A stretch of 63,715 nucleotides of DNA, counting the filler, from Collodictyon triciliatum (Eukaryota): assembly GCA_043381765.1 (NCBI GenBank). It is 9 parts of 9 records of this genome, joined end to end, with 100 filler letters (N's around TTAATTAATTAA, not from the genome) between each part and the next. Parts side by side here need not be neighbours in the genome. Positions count along the whole stretch, not along the records: positions 8,578 to 17,042 come from JBHJMP010003416.1; 8 more parts are not named here. One strand, 5' to 3'. The translations under genes were made by a program, and so were the position numbers. This document shows, one piece after another, positions 8,381 through 61,785 of the stretch (position 1 is its first letter; every line of letters begins with the position of its first letter). A model generated the notes under the pieces. The model was not told the DNA's origin and ran no database searches. It was given only the letters and a program-made list of their open reading frames with translations.

Positions 8381-8384
<4 letters not shown>

Positions 8385-8477
<93 letters not shown>
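8385..8477. repeat. (AAT)n microsatellite; similar tracts near 22224-22323, 24733-24835, 30757-30848, 42635-42751, 49564-49638, 56428-56520, 60790-60852
   Basis: Direct reading; intronic or intergenic. Confidence 0.95.
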
Positions 8478-8577
8478 NNNNNNNNNNNNNNNNNNNNNNN
8501 NNNNNNNNNNNNNNNNNNNNNTTAATTAATTAANNNNNNNNNNNNNNNNNNNNNNNNNNNNNNNNNNNNNNNNNNNN
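8478..8577. other. Artificial contig spacer (N44-TTAATTAATTAA-N44); same at 17043-17142, 25606-25705, 30849-30948, 39407-39506, 47967-48066, 56521-56620, 61672-61771
   Basis: Identical 100-nt structure eight times; the 12-mer places stops in all six frames. Confidence 0.98.
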
Positions 8578-8782: not shown

Positions 8783-11700
8783 TTAAGCCTGTATATTTGA
8801 GCTCCGACGTTGCGATAGCCTAAAATCAAGCATTAATTTATTATTTACATTTTGAAAATCGACTTCAATAATAAATAGTATGAGAAATAAATCCAACACA
8901 CCTGTTTGAAACGGTGGTCCAAGTAATCCGAGTAAAATAGCAATTCTTGACTTTAATTGGTTAAATGGTTTTAAGTAATGTGTATCAAGGTTCAATAAAA
9001 AAACATCTACACAAAATTACATGGCAACTTTTACTTAAAAAGAAAAAATACCCACCGACTTCATAGTGTAATTATTTTTTCTTTCACATACAAACATCCA
9101 TACATCAATAAACCTACAAATATAAAAGTATTAGGTCCTATTACTTATATTTTTTGAATAAATATGCGGGATAAACAAACTTGTTGATATTTTCTTCTGA
9201 TATTGATCCGCAGAAGGAACTCCGTGCGTCGATGTAGTTGTCCAAAAAGATTGCTGTTTGTAGATTTTCTGCTTGTTAGTACTAAAGTACAATTCATTTC
9301 TAAAAAAATTTAAATAATTTTACCGTTGTAGATATTCAGGGCCATAAACCCCATCAAAAAGAGGAAACTGAAGAAGAAAATATTTGCTGTTATGGGAAAA
9401 CCGCAGTCCCCTTTTTCCATATCGCACAACGGTGGTTGAATCATGCATCCCCTTCGTATTTCATCCCAACGATCAAAAGTCATGACCCTTTAGAAGAAAA
9501 AAAAACTTTTTTTTAAAAAAAACTCATCACTCAAGCTGCATGTAGATGAATTTGATGATATCATTGACAAAATAGACATCTTCATACACACCTTAGTAGA
9601 GTTAATGACGACGTCCAGAAATTCGAAAAATTTGCATGAGAGTTAAGACCACTTTGGGAATACTTCACATCCTTGAAAAGTTCTCTTCCAATCATAGAGT
9701 ATAAGAATAAAACGGAAACCATAGGACTAATCACTTTTCCCAAAACTACCGAAGAATCCCTAATTTTTTATACTAGTCTTTACTATGACAAATGGCTGAA
9801 TTTTTCTAAGAGCTTGTTAATGCAACCTAATCTAGATTTGAGAAATTTTAAAATGTTTGATAAATGAAAACTTACAAAGCAGTTAGTAGTAATGTATAAA
9901 TATCATCAGATAGATGAAAAAGTCTAAACAATCTGACGAATCGAAATAATCGAAGCATTCTCAAAATAGAAGATGTAGTCTCTCTTTTGTTTCTCAAAAC
10001 GGAGTATATTATTTCTAAAAATTATAATAATAATAATATAAAAAAGACTTCAATATTGTTCTAAACACAGTAACACTAGTAAAATAAATTAAAAGTTCAG
10101 ACCTGACAGGGGTATCATAGTGACAATACAATCAAATAAATTCGCTTTAGAGTAAAAATAAAATTTTCCGTGAGCCACCATTCTGATAATAGCCTCAAAA
10201 AGAAATATAAAAGTAAAAGCGTCATGTACAGCTCCTGTGTTAGATTAAAACAAAATCAATTTGGAAATATTAATTAAAAATTCACGTTCTTTTTTATTCT
10301 ACTCGAATCCTGCATGAAATACAGTATTAATAGTCTTATAAATATAATAAAGCCGAAAAACAACTCACCAAATATCACTGAGGAGACTACATTCTCAATA
10401 TATCCGTCCATTATCAGTGCAAATATACTTAATAATATGCAAGAGCATATTCCGATTTCAAACCTTTTGGAGCTGAACAAAAAAATTATTGAAAATAGTA
10501 CAGTAAATTTGAATTTCTATTTGCAGCTTACCTGGTCATATCGAACAATGACCTTGAGAAATTATTTCTTGGCTTTACTTTAAGCGGATTAGGCCGAGTA
10601 TGCACGTAATATTTCTTTCAAAAAAGATAGTCATGATTACCATAGTTTGTTTCGTATTAATTTACAACATATAAACTATGCATACCCATAAATAGAACCA
10701 TCTCTTTTCATTTGGGGACAATGCGTTAACTCCTCTTTCAACATCTTTTATCTTAATGGGCATAATTAGTTTTCTTTTCGGTTATTATTTTGGTACATCT
10801 ATATCATGAAAGTAACACACCTTTTTGTACTGATGTATTATAATACCCATAATCAAGGAGGACATATAAAATCCCCCAAAAATCATAAATATTACAAAAT
10901 AAACAGATAGCTCTTGTCTGTTATTGTACTTTGGCTGCTTTGATACCTATATTAAGTCCAAAAGAAATATTAGATTCACAATTTTGGAAGAGCCCACTAT
11001 TTTAAATTTTAATTCATTTTAAAACCTTTCAATACAACTTACATGAACAGAGTCCATTCCTTGGTACATAACTTCAAGCCAATCCTCTCTCATAGACAGA
11101 AGTATTAGGGTTTGAAAAGAGTTTGTAAAATCATCGAAATTGTAATATGCATTCGTCCATTCTCTTTGTAAGACCTAATCGACAATGATTTTCTTATGAT
11201 ATTGAAATCAATGGTATGACACTTTAGGAAAATACCTGTCCATCGATACTGACTATTCCATGACATTGAATTGATAATTCTACATCTAATTTTTCATTAA
11301 ATATAATATTGTCTATTTTTGATATGTATTGCTAAAAAATTTTACCTTTATCGTTGCAAAAATTAAATTTGTCCTTGAAAAGCTGAATTCCTATCACAGC
11401 AAATACATACCACACCAATGTCATCAAAACAATCCCACTAATTACTTGTGGGATAGATATGATGATAGCCTTTACTAATTCCTATCATTTTATATAATGA
11501 AGAATATTTAAAATAAATCCATACCAAAATGAGATTTTCTGAATAACTTAATCCTTTATTTTACTTGTTTGTATATTAAATAGAAAAAATAATATCATCA
11601 ATACATACCTTCATTGCCTTGACTTTGTGAATAACTCTCAAAGACCTGAGTGAATTCATAGATCTTGACAACTTGAATTTCAGTAGAGACTTCGGCACAA

Positions 11701-14700
11701 AGTAGTTGGACATGATGAATATCTTTAACATTATACGATTAGTCAATTTTCAAAATAAATATTCAATACAAAAAGGTACTATTATCAAGAAAAAATCGAG
11801 TAGGTTCCAATAGTCCCTTAAGTAAGCGCCCTTTCCAAAGAAGAAGCCATTCTACATGTTAAAAAAGTTAATAATAATCAAATCAGAACTGCGTTGAATA
11901 GAGTTTTACCACTATGGCCTTCATTATGGCTTCTCCAATAAAAATGATCAGGCACACACCATCGACCATTTTTAGATCTATGATAGATGCTACATCTGAA
12001 GTATGTAATATAATGTAGATTAAAAAATAACATACTTTCAGACAAGTAATATAAAAAATCAACTATTACATGTGTCATCTTTTAGTATCAACGATAGACA
12101 GCTTATTATTATAACTAATAGCATCATCATATCAAAAATGGGATCTTTAATGATGCGGTATATTATCTAAATATGGTTTAATCTTACTAAAAAAACTATT
12201 ACAGTTAGTTTTCAATTTAATTAAGATAGAATACCTCTACATACTTATATTATAGTAAATTCATCTAAATTTCATACATGCCGTATGTAGTTATGCCTGT
12301 CAAATATTAGCAAAGATCTCCCAATCAATTGATTTGATATGGCTTGCTCTTCATAAAAGTCTTCAATATCTGAATCGACTCCTCCATCAGGAGCATCTGT
12401 GGGTACGATGCTCATGATTTCTTCATTTCTTTCATATTCTTTATTCTCCTACAAGGGATTATTGTAAGTAAAACTTAAATAACAGAATTTATTTTCATTT
12501 ACCTCGGGATTTGGATTGATAAGGGCACTCTCTTTAAGAACTGGTGCGGACCTAATTTCGTAGGCCACACCTTGAACTAATTCGGACTTTATAGTTTTTA
12601 TGATTAGAATAAGTGATTTTTTCGTTTCAAGATAATAAATCAAGTTTAATTGTAGATTCGTTTTATTACCAATTAAATTTTATTTACCAATTCATGGGAA
12701 GGAGCGATAGCGTTTGCCGATTTTTCTTTCATTTTGTAACGAAAACGCCTCATATTATTAGATATGAACATGTACTGCGAAACAACTTTACCAAAATTTT
12801 GGCTAGGGTTGGATTTCTTGTTATTCTCATTTGATTCCATACTATTTTGATTCATATTCGTGAATCCATTTTCCAGCGTTTTATTATCTCCAGTCTCCCT
12901 CTTTGTTTTAGAGTCGGAAGATAATGAAGATTCATCTTTAATATCTTCATTCTTTGTTTGTTTTGAAGATGCTAATGAAAGGAGAGATAATGTTCTTTTC
13001 TTGACAGATTCTGTATTATGTTCTATCTGAGGATATTGTAGCTTCATCTGTTTTAGATCCGTGGTGTTTTTCCCATCATTCATTTTTTCAATGATTTTGT
13101 GAGCTCCTCGAAGTTCCTTATCATCTCTTAAAATTCTGCAAAATTAAAAATAAAATTTAAGTTCTTAGATCAAATTGAAAATTTGGTGATGATTTAAAAT
13201 CACTCATTCCAGGTGGACTCAATTTTCTCCTCTATTTCAACTTCAGCATAAGTGTGAATAATGACAGCCAGCAATAGGTACGATAAGCAATCTATAAAGA
13301 ATTAATTTTATGCACGATGTCGCCGATATAAATTCTAAATTAACATTCTGGTATTTATTAAGATGATGTATACATTTTCCAATCATTATTATTGATACAA
13401 AGTAGAAGAAGGCCCCATAATTTGTTTGGTTCATGACCTCATATGCCATTTCTGTCCATCCAAAGGAAAAAAATATCTGATGATAAGTTAACATCTTTTT
13501 ATAGAAAAAAACACGCTGTTATTTAATTTGCGCAAATTGAATGAAAAAATTAAGAAAAAAAAATTAAATGAAAAAAAATTCATACTTGAAGTACGGAGAG
13601 AATAGAATCTGGGAAATTTGAAAAGCTCAATCTATATGCATCGGTTGTGACTGTAACTGTTTCAAAGTACTGAACTCCGATAAGAGCAAATATGCTCTAA
13701 TTTATTTTGAGAAATTCAAATTGGACTAGTGTTGGAGTATTAAACTATTTTCAACTATATTATTGCATAACTAAATTTACCATGAAAAATAGAACTATTA
13801 GACCCATGGATAAAACGCTGAAAAAATTCTTGGCCATGACTTTAGCAACCAAACGGATGAATATGAACCTCCTTTTCATGATGCATTATTTAAAAAATCA
13901 CATTTATGGTTCAATTTTTCTATAATAATAATATCAGATAAGTAACTTTTTGTGATATATGAGTAATTAATTTAGAAAATTACGTTGATAGATTCATGGT
14001 TCCTATAATTGATATTAATCTAAAAACTCTCAATGAAGCCACATTAATTTGTCCATATTTGATTATTTCTACGATGGTCATAGCTGTTATGAAAACATCC
14101 ATAACGTTTTCCTGAAGATTTATTTGATAATTAGATGAAAATGAAAAAATTGTCTTGTTTCGATTTCTTACACAAATATTACAATAAATGTAACATTATA
14201 ATTAATTTTATTACGTAATTTTTAGAAAACTTATCAGGACCAACAGCGACAAACTTTACAGCAGACATCAGGATGAACAAAAAAGTGGTCCCAAATTTCA
14301 TATAATCTGTTTATTGGTTTACTTCCAATAAAAACTTACGAATGAACCAGTAGAATTACACATTGAAAAATTAGAGAGAATTACCAGATAAAGAGCCCAT
14401 GAAATTCTCGTTAATGACTGTCAGAGACAAAACAAAAAGGGTGAAGAGTATTGAAACCCATTCGAATAAAATCCAAAAATAACTCGTAACCATCTGTGAG
14501 TACACCAGGTTAAGTAAATAATTCACAAACATATTTTCAATTGATTCTAATGACCAATATTCTACATGAAGAGACTTTTAAACCTTAAAAGAGATAATCG
14601 ACCAGTTTTTCTCCTTCCAAGGCTTCGGTTGACAGTCCAAACTACATTCAAAATTTTGTGAATTATTGTGTTTTCTTTTTATTATGATATTTAATCCATT

Positions 14701-16947
14701 TTTTTTAGCAAACCTGAGTAAGTGTGATAAACACCTCTCATATTCGGCTGTTATGATGGAAATTTTGATTATTCCAATAATTAGGCTTCGAATTTATGCG
14801 TTAAATAACGAGATGTCACATAATATAAAAAATAATTGTTTTTATAAATTTAAAATGAGCCAAATGTTACTTGGTTTCTTTTGGTTTTCATATGAGTGAT
14901 ACATGATAACGAGTATGATATTCTGTAAGAAAAATGCTGTTGAAATCAATAGCATGATAAAAAATGCTGTTGCCACTAGAGGATATCGGTCTGATGTCTA
15001 AAGTGGTTGATATATTCGGAATGATTAGCATTATTTTAGAAAATGACACAAATGTTTTTCGAAGAATAAAGGAAGGCACCTGATACATTATTGTGCTCCA
15101 GTTGTCCAGAGATGCTACGCGAGATATTGTAGCAAAAGTAGACGAAGGGGATTGAAATCCTACAAATCCATAGTTTGGCAACTTATCTGTTTTCATGCAT
15201 TCATATCCTAGGGTTGAAAATTGAAGCAAAAAATGTGCAAATGAATTAGTGTATAATGAGAGCCTGTTTCATTTTTCGTTGCATAAAAGTAAAATAACTT
15301 TTTGAAATGAAAATTATTAATATTCCACCTATAGAGGTTTTTTTTTTGGAATTAACATATTACCATATGGACATTTTCTAGCATACAATAGATCTCCACA
15401 TCCATATTCCATTGAATAAATATCGCCTTTGGATGACCAGTGTGATAAGTATAAAAAAGACTTAATTTCATGAGTAAATTATTCAGGTACCTTTATTGAT
15501 ATCAATGCATCGAAAAAGAAATGCATCTTCAAACATCAAAGATGCAGTGATGGAAAAACATCCAACAATTGTGATTATTATAATCCAGAACGACACAAGC
15601 ATATGAAAGGACCTAAAAATTGCTTCCAGTAGCCAATTGAACCCCTTCATTTAAAGTTAATAATTCCAAGTCAATATTATGTAGCGAAGTGAAAGATACT
15701 TTCTATCTTCAATAACTTTTTAAAAATGTTATCATTAATATCATTTTCACTGTAGAAAAAAATACTTTGACTTTCCCAATCACCCTTAGTGGTCTTAATA
15801 GTCGAAAAAGTTTTACAAAAGACATTCCTTTTAGCCCATGGACATACTCTAGGGAACTAATTTTAAAAATTAAGTTTATAATTAATTATAAGTCTATCCT
15901 TTATTTTATGATATCTGTGAATGCATAAAAGAAAAAATAAATCAGACCTCCCCAAGAGAATCAGAAACTCAAAAACATTCCACGGCTGTCTTAGATACGC
16001 CTTTTTGCCCATTAAAAGTGAGTCGGCAATGGACTTCATTATTGCCTCGACAGTAAAGATTGCGAAGAACAGAGCATCCAACTTTCGAAATGCATAAATT
16101 CATATTAAAATTTTGATTCATCTGAGTTTTGATTTACAATTTGAATTCTAAATAACTGTTGTGAAGCCTGATTGAAGAGATTAGGGAGGTTAATGTATAT
16201 ACTTTGTCCAGTATGACCATCATTTCTTTTGATTTCTCTGTGTTTGTATAGATAGCCACCAAGAAAGAAAAATTAAACGCTAAAATGACACTCATACTGA
16301 CATCGAACCATCTATTAATTGTCTACGATTATTTTTTTCTGGGGAATAGTTGGAAAATGATTTCATAATCATTAATAAGTAAACGTATCGCTGATTCGAA
16401 GAATTAACCATACCGACTTTTAACGACTTTGTTGGAATAATAGCGAACGGCATTTCTACCACTGAACACTTTAAATGACTTTCCAGTGAGGATCTGAAAA
16501 TATTGAATGCCGTATATTTAACATTCGTCGATATCAGACAAAAAAAAATAATCGATTTCACATTTGTATGCTATTTATTATCAACCTTTCTATTCTTTTC
16601 CTCTAATTCTCTTTCTTCCCTCTGGCTTTCGAATTCTTCACGTTCTTGTAAAATATCATGCAGCCCGGCGCGCTTGAGGACGTATTTTTCAAACGGTGGT
16701 TTCTCCCCAGGATTCTCGAGGTGCTGCATCGCAATCTTTTCATCTCTGTGTGCGGCAACTGTGGGCTTCTTTGCTCCCTCGACAGGTACAATTTTCCCTT
16801 AAATGGAAATTACGCAGAAAATTGTAAATGAGCCGTGATGCCAAATATGGAATCATAGTGGTGACGCAATCTGGAGACGTTTTTGGAAGGTTCCGAGCAG
16901 GCGATCGGTTTTGCTGTCGACTTGCGCAGCTTACCCACAAGGTGCAT
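8783..16947 (-). CDS. Four-domain voltage-gated Na+/Ca2+ channel alpha subunit-like (many exons; both ends approximate)
   Basis: DI: YLRQPWNVFEF, S4 KLFRLLRPLRVI, pore RVASLDNWSTIMY. DII: pore FSNFPDSILSVLQIFFSFGWTEMAY. DIII: YLRDYWNLLDF, pore YNFDDF...LSMREDWLEVMY. DIV: S4 RMLRLFRFVRLFRL, pore HANFSNF...LLRVMTFDRWDEI, then S6 ending LNIYNAIFLDNY. Confidence 0.93.
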
Positions 16948-17524
16948 GGGACATTAAGACAGGAACAAACACAAACACAAATTGAAAAATTCTGGAGAGA
17001 AGGGAAAAAAAAGGAGGAAAAGAAAGAGAAAAAGAAGGAAAANNNNNNNNNNNNNNNNNNNNNNNNNNNNNNNNNNNNNNNNNNNNTTAATTAATTAANN
17101 NNNNNNNNNNNNNNNNNNNNNNNNNNNNNNNNNNNNNNNNNNTGTTTGTTTGTTTGTTTATTTGCTTGTTGTTTGTTGTTTTTTGTTTGTTGTTTTTTGT
17201 TTGTTGTTTTTTGTTTGTTGTTTGTTGCTTTTGCCCTTTCTATCGTCCTTTTGCCAATTTTCCTTCTCTCTTTGGTTTTTTTATTTTATTTTGTTTTGTT
17301 TGTTTCGTTTTCAGTTTTCAGTTTTCAGTTTTTTGTTTTTCGTTTGTTGTTTTTTAGTTTTCAGTTTTCAGTTTCTAGTTTTTTGTTTATTGTTTTTTAA
17401 GTTTTCAGTTTTTCCTTTTCCAAATCATTCATATTTTTCTTTTCAAGAGTTAGAGTGAAAGTTGCCGCACACCGAACTAGCAGCCAAGAGTAAATAGAAC
17501 GCGACGGAAACTTCCAAAGCCCCG

Positions 17525-20500
17525 ATGTCGAACATGTCTGCAAAGACGAAAAAAGGTCGTTCGGTTCGGGATTCTGCTGTGTTGAAGGATCCATCTTTGC
17601 CAAAGGTTATACTCGGAATGGTTCAAAGGGACTATGGTCCGAACATGAACATTAAGAATATTTCTCTTTTATGCCTCATATCCAGCATCTTAGATGATGA
17701 GAACAAGAGCATATATCCTCTGAAGGCCCGCTATGTCTATTTTCCCCATGACATAATGCGATCATGGTTGAAACACACCAACTTATCCTTCGGAAAGATA
17801 GGTATTTGTACGAAGCCTATTTTATCCTTATCTGTTAGAGCCACCTTTCAATTTTCAAAAAAGAAGGGAAAGGCGTTAACGTCTTATCCTATGACCATAT
17901 ATTCGTGATATATTTTATCTGTGTTGCTGTATTTCTCCCTTTGCCTTCAGTATTTTCATTTATTTTCAGATATCCACAGTCAAATAATGCCCTTTTATCT
18001 CCCATGCCCCATTCCTATGCAGTTGCCCCGTCGAAAGAAGGAAATGCTAGCACTACACATGATGATACGCAAATGTCATTCAACGACATCACTTATGAAA
18101 GAATGATTTTGACAATATCATCACGGAGCTTATATGGAAGGCAAGAAATCAGTAAATTGAAACGGAAATATCCAAATAGTGTCCAAAACGCTTTATTTAT
18201 CGACATTAGAGATTTATCGTATTTTATCGGGAAATCAGCACGCAAAGTCTTGCATAGATTCAACAAGTTTGGTCATGAAACATACTCAATCCATCACTTT
18301 AAACCAAAGTGTATGCCTTATTTGTTCAATGTATGCTATCTGTGCAGCATAAAATTGGAGAATCTAGTGATAGTCCAAGTAAATAATATCGATGAAACAC
18401 CTCCTTGCCCCTTCGATGGTTTAAGGAGCTTTCACAATGAAATATCGATATTTGACCACATGTCCTACCCTACCATTGAGAAATTCGAAGAAATGTATGC
18501 GTCAGTCTATAAGTCTCTTGGTAAGGCAGAAGTAGATGGCACTGTGTCATGTTCATCCATTGAAGGAAATAGAGTTCCCTCTAATATACCCAGAACCGAA
18601 GATGTTATGTTCGATACATCATCGAATGCACCACAAAAAGAAGGCGTAGACGTAAATCTACCACCAACTGAATCACACCAAGTTGGCCAAGAAGAAAGTA
18701 TTAAAATGAAGTCTAAATCAAAAACGAACACAAATAGTCCAAGGGAGATGAATTTGGATACAACCTCAAGTCACTCAGGAACATCAGCAATATATGGCCC
18801 ATCATCAAGGAGGAATTCTGAAAGAAGTGAAAGTTTTTTCATGTTATCTATTGAAAAATTTAATGAATATTCTTTCTTTGTTTTTTTTATTTTAAAAAAA
18901 TGTCTAATGATTATATCAAATTGTGCTTGCTTTCAAATATGCATTTCAAAGAAAATTATCTTATGCAGGCAGAGATACAAGAAAAGTGTATGATCCATCG
19001 ACTTTTCTAAATGATAATGGAGCGCAGCATCTTGTAGGACCCACCGATGAAGATATTCAACAAAATCACCAAAACGAAATTTCCTCTTCTTTGACAGACC
19101 ATCACTGCAGCAGCGAGGAATTATTGACCGATAATATAGGTAAAGATGATCCAAATCAAGCAAATACTCATTTATGTTGCCTCACCTATGAAAAATATTA
19201 CCTATGATTGTGCCATTGGGGTCGGACTGTCCATAATGAACGAACTTGTCCAGATAAAGAAAAATCCCAGACTTCTTCCAGTCTCATGGAGTTAAGAGGT
19301 GTAGCTGGTGAGTGCGAACTACCGAATCCGGATACATCTCTTCATTTTGTTGAACAAAACAACTCTGGGAACATCCCAAATAAAGAAGCCATCAATGAAA
19401 AAGGAACAGCTGGGGCACCAAATCAAACTCGAAATGAAGCGCAACCGTCCACATATTCTGATGCTCCATCGACCTTAGATATAGATAAGGATATTGAATG
19501 TAAGTCATTTAGGTGATTTTTTTCGTAATATTTATTCATATCCGATTTAAATTAGTAAATTACTCATTTATGAATCTGATTATGAGTGGTCACTAAATCC
19601 AATATATGCTTAAGACGCAGCTCCCATGGCTTGCTGCGTAATGGTACAATTATCTCCAATGTCTGATGTCGATTCATTCCTCGATGACAACCTTGACATG
19701 TTGCTTTCTTCCAGAACCAGCGATAACAAGTCTCTGAATGAAATGTCCCACAGAGATCCTTTCACTTATCTCCAGGAAATTCTAGGGGTTGCTCACGAGG
19801 TTGAAAAAGTCAGTCAATACGAAAACAGAATCGGAGATGAAAACAGAGATACATTTGTAGATGACATATTAAATGAAATCGGACTTGGACTTGAGGATGC
19901 AGATAATGTTGAAAACGAAGTTGGAAATAGAAATGAAAGCGAAATTCTAGATATACTGGCAAACGAAGAACTCAATGAAATTGTACTTCAGGATGCAGAT
20001 AATGATGGAAACGAAGTTGGAAATAGAAATGGAAGCGAAATTCCAGGTATACTGGCAAACGAAGAACTCAATGAAATTGTACTTCAGGATGCAGATAATG
20101 TTGAAAACAAAGTTGGAAGTAGAAATGACAGCGAAATTCCAGGTATACTGGCAAATGAAGAACTCAATGAAATTGTACTTCAGGATGCAGATAATGTTGA
20201 AAACGAAGTTGGAAATAGAAATGGAAGCGAAATTCTAGGTATACTGGCAAACGAAGAACTCAATGAAGGTGGAGTTGGAATTGAAAATCTTGATGACACT
20301 CCTCATGGGAAAAGGAAACGACTTTTTCTTCCCCAAAAGATTGCCAACTCTTATATTCAGCCCTCAGTTGGCGATATTTCACCCAGTCAGACAGAGCAAC
20401 ATTTCGAAGAACCTACCGCTAAAGTACAGAAAACGACACAATTTTCAGACACAAAATCCGTTCAAACTATTCAGGGTATGGACGCAAATGAATCACATGT

Positions 20501-25580: not shown

Positions 25581-25705
25581 AAAAAAAAAAAAAAAAAAAA
25601 AAAAANNNNNNNNNNNNNNNNNNNNNNNNNNNNNNNNNNNNNNNNNNNNTTAATTAATTAANNNNNNNNNNNNNNNNNNNNNNNNNNNNNNNNNNNNNNN
25701 NNNNN

Positions 25706-30754: not shown

Positions 30755-30848
<94 letters not shown>

Positions 30849-31220
30849 NNNNNNNNNNNNNNNNNNNNNNNNNNNNNNNNNNNNNNNNNNNNTTAATTAA
30901 TTAANNNNNNNNNNNNNNNNNNNNNNNNNNNNNNNNNNNNNNNNNNNNAAAAAAGAAACAAAAAAAGAAACAAAAAAAGAAACAAAAAAAGAAACAAAAA
31001 AAGAAACAAAAAAAGAAACAAAAAAAGAAACAAAAAAGAAACAAAAATGAAAGAAACCAATACGATAATCAGACAGCGCCTTCTATACCTGCATCTTCCC
31101 ACGGAAATGACATTGTTGATAAAACACAAATAGAAAGATAGCTTAACTAAGAGAACAACGCCAATTTCCAAAAAAAAAATAATAATAACTTATAATAATA
31201 ATTAGGGGCCTTAAGGAGAA

Positions 31221-35764: not shown

Positions 35765-38674
<2,910 letters not shown>

Positions 38675-39657
38675 TTTAGTCCATTTCTACATATTCGTGA
38701 AATGGCATCGACCGATTAATTTTGTGTATTATGATGTACTTACAATTATTATAAGCTGACATTTGCAAATTGTAGGAAAGTAGTTCTGTTCGTGTGCACG
38801 TCAATTATACTGCGCTTTGGTTTCACTTTCAAACAAAGGGAATATTGGCGTTATTTTTCTTATTTATTGTTATTTTTAAATTCGATTGATAGTTCCTACT
38901 GATTATGAAAATGTGATGAAGCAGTAAAGAAATTTTAAAGTACTTGAACATATGTAAGCGGGCTTACCTTTTCTCACTTCGGTGCAATCACAGAGAGAAA
39001 TTGGGAAACCATCGCCAAAAGATTACCTACATTATCGGAGCCAGTCCGTTCATCTATTTTTGAAACGAAAATGACACGATTGGCCGTTAAAACGGGCGAA
39101 TAATACCAATGTTAGAAGCAGATAATTGATTCTCATCCATGGTTCCATGACAAACGACCCCGAAGTCGCCTTCTCTGTTATGTGACATAACTGTGGGTGA
39201 TGGATTCGGGTAGCACTTCTAAAAAACAATTTGGCCAGCGAAGGCTCTGAATCTCGTCCGGCTCACGCATGCCTATTTTGTGTACTAATTTCGATCTCAG
39301 AAGAAACAAAAAAACAAAGAAATAAAAAACAAAAAACAAAAAACAAAAAACAAAAAACAAAAAACAAAAAACAAAAAACAAAAAACAAAAAACAAAAAAC
39401 AAAAAANNNNNNNNNNNNNNNNNNNNNNNNNNNNNNNNNNNNNNNNNNNNTTAATTAATTAANNNNNNNNNNNNNNNNNNNNNNNNNNNNNNNNNNNNNN
39501 NNNNNNCAAACCAAACCAAACCAAACCAAACCAAACCAAACCAAACCAAACCAAACCAAACCAAACCAAACCAAACCAAACCAAACCAAACCAAACCAAA
39601 CCAAAAACGGAAAAAATGGTTGGTCTACATTTGTGAACAAACTTATTTAATTCAAAG

Positions 39658-40934: not shown

Positions 40935-42663
40935 ATGCGTCTTAGTCTTCGGTGGGGTATTGTTCTTCTCTGCCTTTCTCTACTGCAGGGCTTCTGCTTC
41001 GGATCGCTGAGGTAAGAGCTTTACTTTTCTTTTCCTTTTCCTTTTACTTTTCTTTTCTTTCCTTTTCCTTTTCCTTTTCTATTATTTTCTTTTCTTTTCC
41101 TTATAGTACCAACACCTTTTTCCTAAGAGGCACCCTAGCAATCTCACTCAACAACCGATCTACTCTACTAGTTCAAATAAAGCACATCAACTTGTTCTCA
41201 AATCCGATGATGACATTGATGCGCTTAGTCTGCCGCAACTCCAGAGCTACGCAAAGAGTTTGCGAGACCGCCTCTTCTATCTTGAGTTGGAAATCATGTA
41301 TGAAACATCTACCATGAAAGAAACAGTCGAGGTAGACAGCGCCTCAAAGCATTTCGACAAAAGAACGCCACCCACAAAGGCGCAACAAAATGTGTCAGAC
41401 ATAGCAATTCTATCTCAATTCTTTGACTTGATGGGAGGTGACAAATGGACCGTAAGCAAGGGCTGGAAGGATCAAAATGTCTGTTATTGCGAATGGTATG
41501 GTGTGAAATGCTTTGATGGTTGCTCGGCTTTGAGTTGTACAGTAAGATTTGACTTTATCAAATGATTATTTAAATCTCTATGTACTCTTTTGATGCTTGC
41601 ATGAATTTTTACTGTAACACACCCAACTTCATGGATTGATTGGCTTTTTTTTTTAAAAAAAAAGTTTACTTAAAATAGCTATCAGCCTTCACCTTTTATT
41701 GATATACTTTACCCAGTCAGCAAATATATCTTTATCTCAGATGAAAAGTGCCTCTGAAGTTATTTTTTCTTACAAATAGAATGGTACTTGCATTGTCCAA
41801 TCAATCAAACTCGCAAACAACAACTTGAGCGGCAACATGGCAGATGTGCTTCCTCTTCTTACAGATTTACAATACATGTTGGAGATTGATTTACGGGCGA
41901 ATAGAATCTTTGGGGAAATGCGCGAATTTTTACACCCTACAATCGAGTCAATCATTCTTTGTTATAACAAATTAAAAGGCGAGTTACCCACTCTGAACAT
42001 AGCTAAAGTTAAGCACTTAGATCTGTCAAATAACTTATTCGATTCAGGCCTTGTGAAATTTAGTGGTATGCCATCACTCACATACCTCAATCTCTCTACT
42101 AATGTCATTGAAGAGGTTGTTATGGCGATTGAAGCTCCTGCATTACAAGTCTTTGACATTTCTTTGAACGAATTTACGGGCCACATATCGATTTTGAATG
42201 AAATTTGTGTTATGAGCCCATTGGTAAACAACATTCGTTTGTCAATGAACCATCTGTTTGGAGCATTACTAACACTGAGCTTTCCACTACTCGAGGACCT
42301 CCAATTTTATGTGAATCTGGTCACTGGATCTATGGCCGATTGGGATATGCCCCTTCTGTATCGTTTGGACTCCTCTGTGAATCTCCTTTCAGGAACCCTT
42401 CCAAATTTTTCCAAGATGCCTAAGGTTGAAATTCTGTTTCTTCAAGACAATAAGTTGACGGGCTCAATACCAGACTTCAATTACCTTCCTCTGTTGATAG
42501 AGCTATTTGCAATAAACAATTTATTCTCAGGTTCCGAAATTATTATGTTCTTTTTTTCAAAATTTATTTCCTCATCATTTTTTCATTTATAACGACATCA
42601 TATGAAATTTGGTAATTGTCCTGTTCCACGTGTGATTATTATTGTTATTATTACTATTATTAC

Positions 42664-42751
<88 letters not shown>

Positions 42752-45700
42752 GACATTATCATTTTATTGACAGGAACATTACCTGATTTTACTGGAATTC
42801 CTCTTGTTGAAAATTTGGCTTTTGCTTTCAGTAACATTAATGGAACTATTCCAAATTTTTCTGATTGTAAACATCTAGTACACATCAGATTATTCAATAA
42901 TAACCTTACTGGCACCATACCCACTTTCCATGACCTGTGTGTGCTGTATCGAATAGATGTAAACAATAACTTTTTGACGGGCTCTTTCCCTGATTACAAT
43001 CACCTTCCTTTACTGACCCGAATCAGAGTAAGCGGAAATAGATTTAGTGGGTCTCTTCCACCAGTCAATCACCCTAGAATAGAGCTTTACAAGCTTGATG
43101 GGAACATGTTTAGTGGGACCATACCCGAGTACAATGGTATTTCGTTGAAATATCTGGATTTAAATCGAAACCGTCTAAATGGCACAATTCCTTCATTCAA
43201 GGATGCCCTACACATTAGAGATTTAGATCTGTCTTTCAATAACCTTGAAGGAGGTGTTCCTTTAGCACTTTCGAACTTGTCAGATATTTCTTCTGTTGTC
43301 TTATCCCATAATTTATTGTCTGACCGCCCAAACAAGGAATTCTGGCTTAGCGACCATTTATTCTACATAGATTTGAGCTACAACAGATTTTCAGATAAAA
43401 TTTATTTCTTTTTACCAGACGACTATACCACGAGCTATCCAGTGAAGTTTTTAAATTTGAAAGGGAATAAGCTATCTGGGTCTATTACAAATTTTATCTA
43501 CCACGCACTGCAGTTTGCTATTGAAGTTGATGTATCAAACAATATGATTGAATATGTCGAGGACCTCACTTTCGTGCGAGACTGGAAATCCTTTGATTTA
43601 TCTGAAAACCCTATAACCGGGTCTATTCCTGAATCATTCAAATCCTTCAATAAGCTGGAAAATTTTGACCTGACCAGCACAAACATGTCAAGCGACAGCA
43701 AGGAATATCCTCTTCCTTCGTTCTTGAGTCCAACAAAACAATTTAGTTTGGACTTTTTCCAACAAAAATACTCTTGTCCAATTATTTCTGGGACTACTCT
43801 GTTAATGAGCGTGCACATGGATCCAAAGTATTACGAATACGCTTTGTGTGTCTGCCAGCCAAATCACTTTGGATATTCAGCCTCGTGCCTCGAATGCACT
43901 TCATCGTGCCACTGTCCTGGCGGTTCGGTGATAGGAGAATGCTATCCGAGTCCATCCGTATCAAACCCTACACACACATTAGAGTGCCCAAATCCAGATG
44001 CTTGCAATAAAAACATGAATACAACATTTATGTGCACAACTGGTTACGAAGATCGTCTGTGCTCAAAGTGTGCCGACGGGTATTACAAAATCGGGTGGGG
44101 CTGTGTTGCATGCCCCAATTATGTTGTATACCTCCTCCCAGTCACATCGCTGATTTTTATAGCTATTTTGATAGTGTACCTAACTCAGACCCCAATCTCA
44201 TCCACAGGTTTACATATTTGCACAATATGATGAATATTCTTTCACAAAATTAACACAATCACCTTTAAAACCAGATATACTCTGATTTATTGTTAAAACG
44301 GTAACTTTCGCTTCTTTTTTCCTCCTACCTCTCTCTCTTCTGTTTTTATTTACCCAACAGGCTGCATGAAAATTCTACTTTTCCACGTGCAAACACTTTT
44401 TATGATGAATTCTGGTGTATTCCGCGTCGTTGACTTCCTCAGTTACATGGTTGACATCGGGTTCAAATTCAGCAGTGGGACATTTCCAGCTAGTGCATGT
44501 TTGCTTTCTGGCGCTGGGAATGGAATGGCCGAAAGCTACATGACACTTACCCGTTTGATAGTTTGCATGCTCTTGGCTTTGATATCTTTCAAAATTGTCA
44601 AAGAACACAACCAAAACAGAGTATTTTTCTTATTCATAAAAGATTTTTCATAATTTTTAACATTTTAGTTTACCTTTAAATACATGTCCATTCATAGGTT
44701 GCTGATGAGTTATCCATTTATTGACACATATTTTCTATCTTGATGCAGGTAATCTTCATTACACTTTTCTTCCTTCAGATAATGTTTTATGACGTTGCGC
44801 ACAAGGTTGTCAGCCTACTAGGATGTACATTACATGATGCTGGTACAGAAAAGTGGTATCTATCAGAATTTCCGTGGGTTCAGTGTAGCCCGATAAGTGG
44901 CGAGTACATCCCCTTGTTGCTGTATGCCTTATTTGGATTAGTGTTTTTTGTTGTATGGTTTCCAGTCCAAATATTCAAGCTTTTATACGACTGTCAAATA
45001 CATGGTGAATATGGCTATTACAGAGAGAGATATGGTTTTCTCTATCTAGTCTATCGTAAGGTAAATGCATTTTTCTATCTATCCTGCTTCCAACAGCCCC
45101 CAAAAAATTTTATATTAATAAACTTGTTTGCCACTTCTCCGGACTGGACCAAATCATATATTATTTCAATCAAGAAAAAATATTCATCCATTCGAATTGT
45201 TAAAGGAACTATACTTTTGGGAAATCGTCTTGTTGATGCGGCGGATGATAATCACCATAGTTATTTCTGTTGTCCCGTTCTCTGAGTTTGCCACGCGCAA
45301 TTTCCTTTTGTTTATCACCCTCCAAGTTAGTCATCATTTACTACATGAGTCTATCTGATAGTGATAATTGTCATCAAAACAATGATAATAATAATTCAAT
45401 ACATATCATACAGAGATATTCACCACATCTATGACATAAGAATGAACTGAAAAAGTCAGCTGGTTTTTGAGGATTTTTTTTTTCAATTGACTTATCTGGT
45501 TCCACCCGAAATTACAGGTGTCTATTTTCTTGCAACAAAGATTCAGTCCATACACTTCCACAACAGAAAACCGCCTTGAGCTTCTCAGCCTTTACACAAT
45601 ATACACATCATTCTTTGCCAATCTGCTTGGGGATTTCCTTCAAGTATCACTGTGGATGAGTGGTTTCGTGCTTACTCTGAATCTGTCTGTCCTAGGCATC

Positions 45701-61040: not shown

Positions 61041-61785
61041 ATGAATGAATGAATGAATGAATGAATGAAAGAAAAGAACTTTACTGTCCTACACAAGTCC
61101 CACTGGCTCTCTTGAAAGTATCCACCCACCCTAATAGCACGCTTCAAAAGGTTGTCTTTTCTCTTTGAAGATCAAAGTCAAATCTGTGGGGCAATGACTG
61201 GCGCGGACGTTTCGGTATTTGCCTTCTCCTTTCATCACTCCTGTCGTCGATTGGCAGATTGTGGAACACCCAACTTTCCAAATGAAACTCTTATTGCGGA
61301 ATATATTACAAAATTATAATTATGTCATACAATTCATATTATATACATGTTTTTAAATTAAAAAGTGTTTATAGTCACAAATTTAAAGCATCACTTAATG
61401 AAGAGAATCGCCGTAAGTGCTTCCCATACTACGCAATACTAAATGTAGAAAAGGAAAGGTTTCTGTGCCTAGAATTCCAGAATTGGATTATCGCAACGGC
61501 GAAAGAGATGAATCTGCATCCTCAACCCCGCTTAGGCTCGAGCTGCCAGTGTGCTGTGTTAGACAGGCCGAACAAAGAGCGAGAGAACTCCAGGCCCAGG
61601 GAAGTCACCCAAGTATGCAGATGACATAGAAGGGATCTTGACGGGGTCAGACAGCAAGAAACCCATTTGATNNNNNNNNNNNNNNNNNNNNNNNNNNNNN
61701 NNNNNNNNNNNNNNNTTAATTAATTAANNNNNNNNNNNNNNNNNNNNNNNNNNNNNNNNNNNNNNNNNNNNAAAAAAAAAAAAAA

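Follow-up and report, generated by a model that had tools for sequence, protein, structure and literature searches.

The Na+/Ca2+ selectivity of the superfamily of four-domain channels is determined centrally by a four-residue acidic ring, of which the Glu of domain II (DII) is the most constant member. In the freshwater protist Collodictyon triciliatum, which belongs to the deep-branching and poorly sampled collodictyonids/CRuMs lineage, a gene predicted on the minus strand of the window (the whole stretch of DNA that was analysed, 63.7 kb) reads Phe at this very site. The locus raises the question of whether this is a working channel with an altered filter, a gene in decay or an error. The four ring codons, read at exact coordinates, give D/F/E/D from DI to DIV and agree in sequence and position with the original prediction. 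The features that bear on the question are the following.

8783..16729, minus strand: the whole predicted gene, from three-frame views, coordinate-based junction enumeration, assembly and translation, and collinear tblastn matches
15080..15207, minus strand: exon 8, DI pore loop (..ATISRVASLDNWSTIMYQ), with the ring Asp codon GAC at 15104-15106, in VASLDNWST
13984..14111, minus strand: exon 13, DII S3-S4, from the S4 alignment (LRVFRLISIIG)
13586..13696, minus strand: exon 15, DII S5 and pore helix (SIFALIGVQYF...NFPDSILSVLQ), donor gtatga
13374..13476, minus strand: exon 16, DII filter and first half of S6 (IFFSFGWTEMAYEVMNQTNYGAFFYFVSIIMIGK), acceptor atcatcag
13462-13464, minus strand: the ring Phe580 codon TTT of exon 16, F in IFFSFGWTE
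12688..13135, minus strand: exon 18, the largest exon, low-complexity DII-DIII cytoplasmic linker
11043..11174, minus strand: exon 27, DIII pore loop (..LILLSMREDWLEVMYQGMDSVH), with the ring Glu codon GAG at 11085-11087, in LSMREDWLE
9876..10014, minus strand: exon 33, DIV S4 with five regularly spaced Arg (LRMLRLFRFVRLFRLF), from the S4 alignment
9324..9487, minus strand: exon 35, DIV filter, Cys-rich post-filter loop and S6 (RVMTFDRWDEIRRGCMIQPPLCDMEKGDCG...)
9472-9474, minus strand: the ring Asp codon GAT of exon 35, D in VMTFDRWDE

The divergent four-domain channel that had been predicted is borne out by a complete gene model. Its 38 exons, whose ends were set by coordinates, are separated by 37 introns of 45-156 bp, all of them GT-AG, and the spliced translation of the 4647-nt CDS runs through DI-DIV for 1548 amino acids and a stop, with no internal stop. 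Matches to the Pfam family Ion_trans (PF00520) were obtained with eight of nine exon translations at E<=1 (two of the nine scored above the gathering score on their own), and exons from all four domains are among them. Taken in order, the 38 exons are collinear by tblastn with a 1746-aa homologue (P0039, see below) across all four domains, which together with the uninterrupted 1548-codon frame rules out a chance pattern; the spliced model can also be aligned from DI to DIV with 160 four-domain channels. The model is least certain at its start (ATG at 16729) and at its 3' terminus, and blocks of N lie a short way outside the gene on either side (17043-17142 and 8478-8577). A stop at 9145 was considered as the gene end and discarded because the P0039 alignment continues into a further exon at 9113-9052. 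In the predicted C-terminus the IQ-like stretch of the relatives is missing, a sign that the 3' end may be incomplete or have degenerated.

The nearest proteins found are three products of the Diphylleia rotans transcriptome (EukProt EP00002 P004665, P014058 and P018406, hereafter P0039, P0035 and P0161), which phmmer retrieved with the spliced model at 764, 608 and 594 bits, the next match falling to 488. They are 35.5%, 30.5% and about 30% identical to the model, and all three carry a D/E/D/D ring. The pairing of the model with P0039 received a support of 100 and the four-member clade an SH-aLRT of 99 in a quick IQ-TREE run (45 rows); the same groupings scored 1.0 and 0.998 in FastTree (160 rows). 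In trees built without NALCN and without non-animal Nav-like reference sequences, the clade adjoins the animal Nav channels (SH-like 0.955 in FastTree, SH-aLRT 94 in IQ-TREE). In the IQ-TREE analysis EEDD and EEEE sequences fall in other clades, Cch1-like rows (N/E/E/E) are distant from this one, and the model and P0039, on a long stem (0.61), form its fast-evolving half. These comparisons suggest, with moderate support, a position of the four-member clade beside animal Nav channels and not beside NALCN, and the clade appears to be located close to where animal sodium channels originated. Because Glu occupies the DII site in the sister, in the two cousins and in the outgroups, Phe is the derived state and, judged from this comparison, arose on the window gene's own branch.

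The possibility of an undescribed subfamily, raised in the original prediction, holds in part: we found no functional description of this small clade, but the clade is not wholly new because three of its members already sit in a public transcriptome set. With the window gene, a divergent sequence, a collodictyonid/CRuMs clade previously drawn from one transcriptome gains its fourth member. No relevant literature was found on Diphylleia voltage-gated channels or on DEDD or DFED selectivity filters. At the protein level, 1.84 billion representatives contained no near-identical sequence; the DIII exon matched at best with 41-49% identity. A word-based protein search with the DI S2-S3 and DIV pore exons, which detects only relatives sharing 5-residue words, returned no match, and neither did metagenome locus scans with a 91-aa open frame around exon 16 and with the DIV pore exon.

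How unusual is the ring itself? The DII Glu is kept in 93 of 113 surveyed channels, and a non-acidic ring residue occurs in 22 of the 113; Phe is found in none of them, nor at any ring position of the 161 sequences aligned with the window gene. The survey includes DII sites with Ala (P0166), Lys (P0014), Ser (P0089) and Asn (P0202), as well as a Tyr in DI (P0061) and a Val in DIV (P0103). In print, the text of Pozdnyakov et al. 2018 (PMC5824947) names the protist rings D/D/K/D, A/G/K/E, S/S/K/E, D/K/T/D, E/S/L/L and N/D/D/N, the E/S/L/L ring with its hydrophobic residues being that of Paramecium, and describes lineage-specific clades with non-canonical rings, the same phenomenon as the one met here; no Phe-containing ring is among those named in that text, its supplementary table of 277 rings aside. 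The earlier assertion that the established families all keep Glu in DII fails in protists and even in the animal families that it listed: according to passages of PMC5824947 and bioRxiv 10.1101/2025.04.04.647097, NALCN also occurs in E/K/E/E forms and some cnidarian Nav channels are D/K/E/A. The significance of the finding is limited by the known frequency of unorthodox rings in protists and by the predicted nature of the channel function.

The pore loops of the window gene otherwise resemble those of the Diphylleia trio, with which it has in common the Asp in DI and DIV, the motif SLD(N/D)W in DI, the motifs T(F/Y)D(N/R)W and C.(I/V)QPPLC in DIV, and, at the second position past the DII Trp, an acidic residue. 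The trio has Glu in DII and Asp in DIII, whereas the window gene has Phe (a radical change) and Glu (a conservative one); it also differs in its extra acidic residues past the Trp in DIII and DIV and in the Arg that follows the DIV ring residue. This DIV Arg, to which the original prediction had drawn attention along with one in DIII, is peculiar to the gene, but the DIII Arg is not special since the sister P0039 likewise has Arg before its DIII ring residue (CRDGW). The Trp two residues past the ring residue is kept in all four domains (DNW, FGW, EDW and DRW). Acidic residues are found in the model at the Nav outer-ring positions of DII-DIV (WTE, WLE and WD(E)), while the relatives have an acidic residue at the matching positions essentially in DII alone; the charge summed from one residue before the ring to two residues past the Trp, over the four loops, is about -6, as in the relatives. 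Among solved structures, the best match of exon 27 (41.5 bits) is the Cav3 T-type DIII loop and that of exon 35 (23.3 bits) the DIV of NALCN; exon 16 matched only an alpha-rhamnosidase, by chance, and Cav3.1, without significance (E 8.3), the latter match placing FGW on EGW.

The rings of animal Nav channels are DEKA in Nav1, DENS or DENA in Nax and D/E/E/A in the ancestral type. With animal Nav the window gene shares the Asp in DI and the acidic outer-ring positions in DII-DIV, and its net ring charge of -3 equals that of D/E/E/A. Unlike Nav1, it lacks the Lys of DIII and the Ala of DIV and, unlike in animal Nav, its neutral ring position is in DII and is aromatic. The Nav-specific families PF06512 and PF24609 are listed for the animal Nav matches but not for P0039, P0035 or P0161, according to the precomputed Pfam column. 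The Cav1/Cav2 and Cav3 channels (E/E/E/E or E/E/D/D) differ from the window gene with its Asp in DI and Phe in DII. P0039 scores 411 bits against Cav2.2 and 410 against Nav1.3, in a Cav/Nav range of 398-411. The DIV exon prompted us to consider a NALCN identity, as NALCN and the window gene share the post-filter CM(I/V)QPP(L/F)C; one S4 is also charge-poor in both. This identity was rejected on the whole-length score of P0039 against NALCN (230 bits vs 398-411 for Cav/Nav) and on the trees, built without NALCN. The NALCN rings (E/E/K/E, E/K/E/E and E/E/E/E) and the Glu-rich ring of Cch1 (N/E/E/E in the Cch1-like rows sampled) are unlike D/F/E/D.

DII departs from the other domains in its voltage sensor as well. 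The S4 alignment shows four to five basic residues at every third position in DI, DIII and DIV, while the S4 of DII is charge-poor, with two regularly spaced Arg only and a Gly in place of the conserved Arg at model position 502; a weakened DII S4 is also seen in P0039. Some voltage-insensitive members of the superfamily likewise carry a charge-poor S4, the standard of Arg or Lys at every third S4 position being taken from PMC5824947. With its ring Phe and its charge-poor S4, the whole of DII seems to have changed its function.

We propose that the gene is intact and encodes a probably functional, pseudo-tetrameric cation channel of the voltage-gated type, a member of the D/E/D/D clade in which the DII Glu was replaced by Phe on the terminal branch to yield D/F/E/D. 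We infer that the pore would still conduct cations, as three ring carboxylates are left and the net charge is that of D/E/E/A, a ring listed as cation non-selective in a passage of PMC5824947. Loss of the DII carboxylate would weaken high-affinity divalent binding and may lessen Ca2+ selectivity or block, the bulk of the Phe side chain may constrict the filter or reduce conductance, and DI, DIII and DIV, with their charged S4, would probably still sense voltage. That the predicted channel has an altered selectivity or conductance, as first suggested, is a reasonable inference. It is tempting to speculate further that the Phe in a working channel is offset by the negative charge of the outer vestibule in DIII and DIV, which would amount to a new solution for permeation and selectivity; we hold this extension to be possible but somewhat doubtful. 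If true, it would add a permeation solution absent from the characterised Nav, Cav and NALCN channels, for example a monovalent-preferring or weakly Ca2+-blocked one, with a ring of three carboxylates and one aromatic residue combined with a silent DII voltage sensor.

A different reading, which we consider unlikely, is that the Phe obstructs or dehydrates the filter and that the gene is a non-conducting or degenerating paralogue, either becoming a pseudogene or acting as a flux-free voltage sensor or scaffold. It would account for (i), the joint occurrence of two departures in DII, the ring Phe and the charge-poor S4 with its Arg502 to Gly replacement, (ii), an end branch that is the longest in the clade (0.79 vs 0.64 for P0039, IQ-TREE), (iii), an amino-acid composition flagged in the IQ-TREE run as skewed to AT-rich codons, (iv), the absence of the protein from the public collections searched, which would fit low or no expression, and (v), the missing C-terminal IQ-like region. 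AT pressure would also favour a TTT codon, a point against the proposed reading. However, pseudogenisation, which the original prediction had named among the dangers to the claim, has left no mark on the gene: its 1548 codons contain no stop or frameshift, 37 of 37 splice sites are intact, GC is well over that of the introns in the coding sequence (0.352 vs 0.234), and of the 68 near-universal residues (columns conserved at >=85%) the gene retains 56, one fewer than the expressed sister P0039 (57). Moreover, the pore-loop Trp is present in four of four domains, and extra acidic residues surround the filter. Nor is the divergence of DII above that of the other domains, identity to P0039 being 37% in DI, 37% in DII, 38% in DIII and 41% in DIV, with 39% in the DII pore module.

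That the Phe is an artefact of sequencing, assembly or gene modelling is highly improbable. The source assembly has many N blocks in microsatellites, a T7 run precedes the Phe codon by 3-9 bases, and among the matches listed exon 16 is covered by no contig of X1 or X2, the two freshwater-metagenome DNA runs that match in small shares (0.08 and 0.07). Yet GAA or GAG can become TTT only by three base changes, and an indel in the T7 run could not yield Phe because the downstream frame (SFGWTEMAY) fixes the reading TCC TTT GGA TGG; the intact frame and the improbability of a single base error, both argued originally, are upheld. The DII junction, predicted at about 13586/13476, is a valid GT-AG intron of 109 bp in phase 0 (13586|13476, giving ...DSILSVLQ|IFFSFGWT...), and the gap-free alignment of the DII loop now extends to the DII loops of 16 relatives (e.g. 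VFQVFIGEGWAEMAY and VFQILTGEDWNAVMY), F falling on their E. The sole other in-frame acceptor (13515) would add 13 residues before the filter and retain SFGW; it was dismissed because the pore-helix alignment with all relatives would lose its gap-free state. Elsewhere in the gene, five metagenome pieces of 186-321 bases from two studies (10273-10593, 15064-15324 and 15962-16186 from X1; 9825-10010 and 14490-14730 from X2, among the matches listed) show 0-1 differences, so the assembly is accurate at those places; the 261-base X1 contig over the exon 8 region (15064-15324) has its single difference at 15227, in an intron.

Least probable of all is a restoration of Glu in the mature product by RNA editing, which would require three base changes, or by a mutually exclusive DII pore exon of the kind documented for NALCN, whose ring is switched by alternative pore exons in some invertebrates (a passage of bioRxiv 10.1101/2025.04.04.647097, citing Senatore et al. 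2013): the channel is not NALCN-type (230 bits for the sister vs about 410 for Nav/Cav), no second DII pore-like segment exists in the window (tblastn, four relatives, E<=10), and the introns around exons 15 and 16 (84, 109 and 82 bp) leave no room for another such exon (about 100 bp).

If the channel conducts, as the preferred reading of an intact D/F/E/D channel would have it, the gene would constitute a natural experiment on an aromatic residue at the DII site and on charge compensation in the outer vestibule. Channels of CRuMs are reported as sister to NALCN/Cch1 in a passage of PMC12412391, and these may be different genes from the one in the window. In the DIII-DIV linker of the model, NAL-S aligns to the IFM-T of Nav, and two of the three triplet positions are hydrophobic.

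The channel locus lies on the minus strand in AT-rich DNA (GC ~0.30) and is split into many short open pieces bearing channel-like peptides; of nine open pieces, eight had Ion_trans (Pfam) matches at E<=1, and two passed the gathering score by themselves. By reading three frames and then enumerating by coordinates all frame-keeping GT..AG pairs between adjacent pieces, we obtained a model of 38 exons (16729 to 8783, minus strand), with 37 introns of 45-156 bp, all GT-AG and mostly with GTA(A/T) donors. The 4647-nt CDS encodes 1548 residues without internal stops, and GC is 0.352 in exons vs 0.234 in introns. A tblastn search with P0039, a Diphylleia rotans protein, matched the model exons in order through all four domains and gave no other match of meaningful score within the 63.7-kb window. 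Least certain in the model are its start codon and 3' end: relatives have longer N-termini, and their IQ-like C-terminal stretch was looked for at the model 3' end and not found. The selectivity ring, one residue per domain, reads as follows:

15104-15106, minus strand: DI ring codon GAC, D293, in SLDNW
13462-13464, minus strand: DII ring codon TTT, F580, in FSFGW
11085-11087, minus strand: DIII ring codon GAG, E1088, in MREDW
9472-9474, minus strand: DIV ring codon GAT, D1380, in TFDRW

The original prediction of a D-F-E-D ring is thus confirmed, all four codons having exactly the positions and residues claimed. The DII junction that it had placed at 13586|13476 (gtatga...atcatcag) is also sound, being a GT-AG intron of 109 bp in phase 0 that keeps the frame. 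After splicing, the DII loop reads FPDSILSVLQIFFSFGWTEMAY and aligns without gaps to those of the relatives, with Phe on their Glu. The sole other in-frame acceptor, 13515, adds 13 residues ahead of the filter and leaves SFGW unchanged. Exon 16, the DII filter exon, is preceded by an intron whose 3' part (13477-13518, minus strand) is open in the exon 16 frame; tblastn weakly aligned this part to P0039 where the pore helix ends (FYKKMLTYHQ vs FPKSLLAVFQ, 4/10). Chance is the probable cause, although a minor splice form is conceivable.

Word-based protein searches with two model exons gave no matches. An exhaustive HMMER search of a library of 1.84 billion representatives, with the DIII pore exon as query, returned 206 proteins at E<=0.001, none above 41-49% identity over that exon, so the model protein or a near-identical one is absent from this library. 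Local scoring of the spliced model against fetched proteins ranked first three proteins from the transcriptome of the collodictyonid Diphylleia rotans (CRuMs group), namely P0039 (764 bits), P0035 (608) and P0161 (594, from an additional search), the next protein scoring 488. Identity to the model is 35.5% for P0039 over 1368 aligned positions and 30.5% for P0035, and all three carry the ring D/E/D/D. Among the matches listed, short contigs of two metagenome studies of fresh water matched five gene pieces with 0-1 differences, one contig spanning the DI pore exon and none lying over exon 16; the source organism or a near-identical strain is thus a freshwater dweller like other collodictyonids.

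Trees were built with FastTree (160 four-domain channels) and by an IQ-TREE quick search (45 of those). The model pairs with P0039 (support 1.0 FastTree / 100 IQ-TREE) and forms a clade with the three D. rotans proteins (0.998/99), whose sister, in trees that hold no NALCN or non-animal Nav-like references, is animal Nav (DEKA) plus Nax (0.955/94); Asp-in-DI channels of diplonemids and metagenome eukaryotes are the next group out. We consider the Nav affinity of this clade moderately supported by these sequences. A NALCN identity, suggested by the CM(I/V)QPP(L/F)C that the DIV exon has in common with NALCN, was rejected: against solved structures P0039 scored over its whole length 411 bits with Cav2.2, 410 with Nav1.3, 398 with Cav3.2 and 230 with NALCN, which makes the likeness a local one. 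Passages of PMC12412391 place CRuMs channels as sister to NALCN/Cch1, and these may be different genes from the present clade.

Judged by its sequence, the model adds a new and divergent protein to a protist clade that lies near Nav channels and is barely known; its DII Phe is derived and unique within the sample surveyed. The ring survey covered those 113 of 162 aligned rows in which every loop has Trp at ring+2, and 49 rows (fragments, Nax, Cch1-like and oomycete-type loops) were dropped. The DII residue is E in 93 rows and D in 15; F, K, S, A and N occur once each. The dropped rows likewise contain no Phe at DII. Of the 113 rows, 22 carry one or more non-acidic ring residues, among them three animal Nav and the channels P0061 (Tyr in DI) and P0103 (Val in DIV). 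P0166, an abundant eukaryote channel of the Asp-in-DI group (a cluster of 47 members, ENA and JGI metagenomes), has the ring D/A/D/D, and its DII shows a GxW spacing like that of Nav; here too the carboxylate of DII has been lost naturally. A full-text literature search found no paper on a DFED selectivity filter. The selectivity-filter section and matching passages of Pozdnyakov et al. 2018 (PMC5824947), in which no Phe-containing ring was found, describe 'a great variety' of protist rings (D/D/K/D, A/G/K/E, S/S/K/E, D/K/T/D, E/S/L/L, N/D/D/N, T/E/N/D). On these passages, the earlier rule that all rings keep Glu in DII fails beyond the named animal families. The original interpretation is partly supported, its reading of a real divergent channel being upheld.

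Three carboxylates are left in the model ring, whose net charge equals that of D/E/E/A, given among cation non-selective filters in passages of PMC5824947. In the animal Nav rows of our alignment, an outer acidic residue occupies Trp+1 (DI, DIV) or Trp+2 (DII, DIII); the corresponding residues of the model are Glu in DII and DIII and Asp in DIV, whereas the three D. rotans proteins are acidic essentially in DII only. When the charges between ring-1 and Trp+2 are added up for the four loops, the total is about -6 in the model, -5 in P0039 and -6 in P0035. Taken together, these features suggest that the Phe channel most likely conducts cations, that loss of the DII carboxylate would weaken divalent binding, that the filter is possibly narrower with Phe and that gating would proceed via the DI, DIII and DIV sensors. 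In L-type channels, Ca2+ affinity is known to fall when a ring Glu is neutralised, as reportedly shown by Yang et al. 1993, a study cited in the preprint bioRxiv 10.1101/2025.04.04.647097.

As chief rival stands a paralogue that does not conduct or is decaying, which would be in keeping with the position of the model and P0039 as the fast half of the four-member clade, with a composition skewed toward AT-rich codons and with a charge-poor DII S4, where two spaced Arg only are present and Gly replaces a widely conserved Arg. Identity to P0039 is nonetheless even by domain (DI 37%, DII 37%, DIII 38%, DIV 41%; DII pore module, 39%), the IQ-TREE terminal branch is 0.79 for the model vs 0.64 for P0039, and of 68 alignment columns with at least 85% agreement among 161 other sequences the model keeps 56, against 57 in P0039, 68 in P0035 and 66 in P0161, P0039 also departing at 7 of the 12 columns where the model departs. 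Even identity and conserved columns, combined with the weak S4, make DII look shifted in function, not eroded. An artefact, a hidden alternative DII exon or RNA editing are all unlikely, because Glu to Phe requires three base changes (multiple substitutions, as originally argued), the TCC TTT GGA TGG reading is fixed by the downstream frame so that an indel in the adjacent T7 run cannot produce Phe, the flanking introns measure merely 84, 109 and 82 bp, and tblastn found one DII-like match only within the window. The importance of the D/F/E/D variant hinges on expression and electrophysiology.

In the intron that follows the DIV pore exon (9254-9323, minus strand), TACTAAC, the yeast-type branch-point consensus, stands 19 bases before an unused AG; the acceptor used, 9254, lies 16 bases past that AG, a choice that fits homologues. 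Eight paired N blocks, each 44 N + 12 bases + 44 N and several spaced ~8.56 kb apart, occur in the window:

8478-8577, 17043-17142, 25606-25705, 30849-30948, 39407-39506, 47967-48066, 56521-56620, 61672-61771: N blocks

Most are bordered by perfect ~100-base microsatellites, e.g. (TAA)31 at 8384-8477 and (TTA)31 at 30756-30848, and they look like gaps or masks within long simple repeats. Two, at filler between joined records, lie directly outside the channel gene, one on each side, and may hide its ends.

Elsewhere in the window, a 96-base repeat (four copies, 93% alike; 19885-20267, plus strand) encodes a repeated acidic peptide module within a 451-codon open frame in which no Pfam family scored above threshold. 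Phosphoacetylglucosamine mutase exons (AMG1 domain III, E 5e-26) lie at 36071-36762 (minus strand). At 41780-44227 (plus strand) lies the gene of a long protein of leucine-rich repeats that may be receptor-like and whose C-terminal part is Cys-rich (DUF7630, weak); an (ATT)39 microsatellite (42635-42751), read as poly-Ile, interrupts it without breaking the frame. A 483-codon open frame at 46286-47734 (minus strand) has WGR, PARP regulatory and PARP catalytic domains (E 5e-29); with GC 0.535 and GC3 0.617, compared with 0.352 and 0.368 in the CDS of the channel, it shows that composition differs strongly between neighbouring genes.
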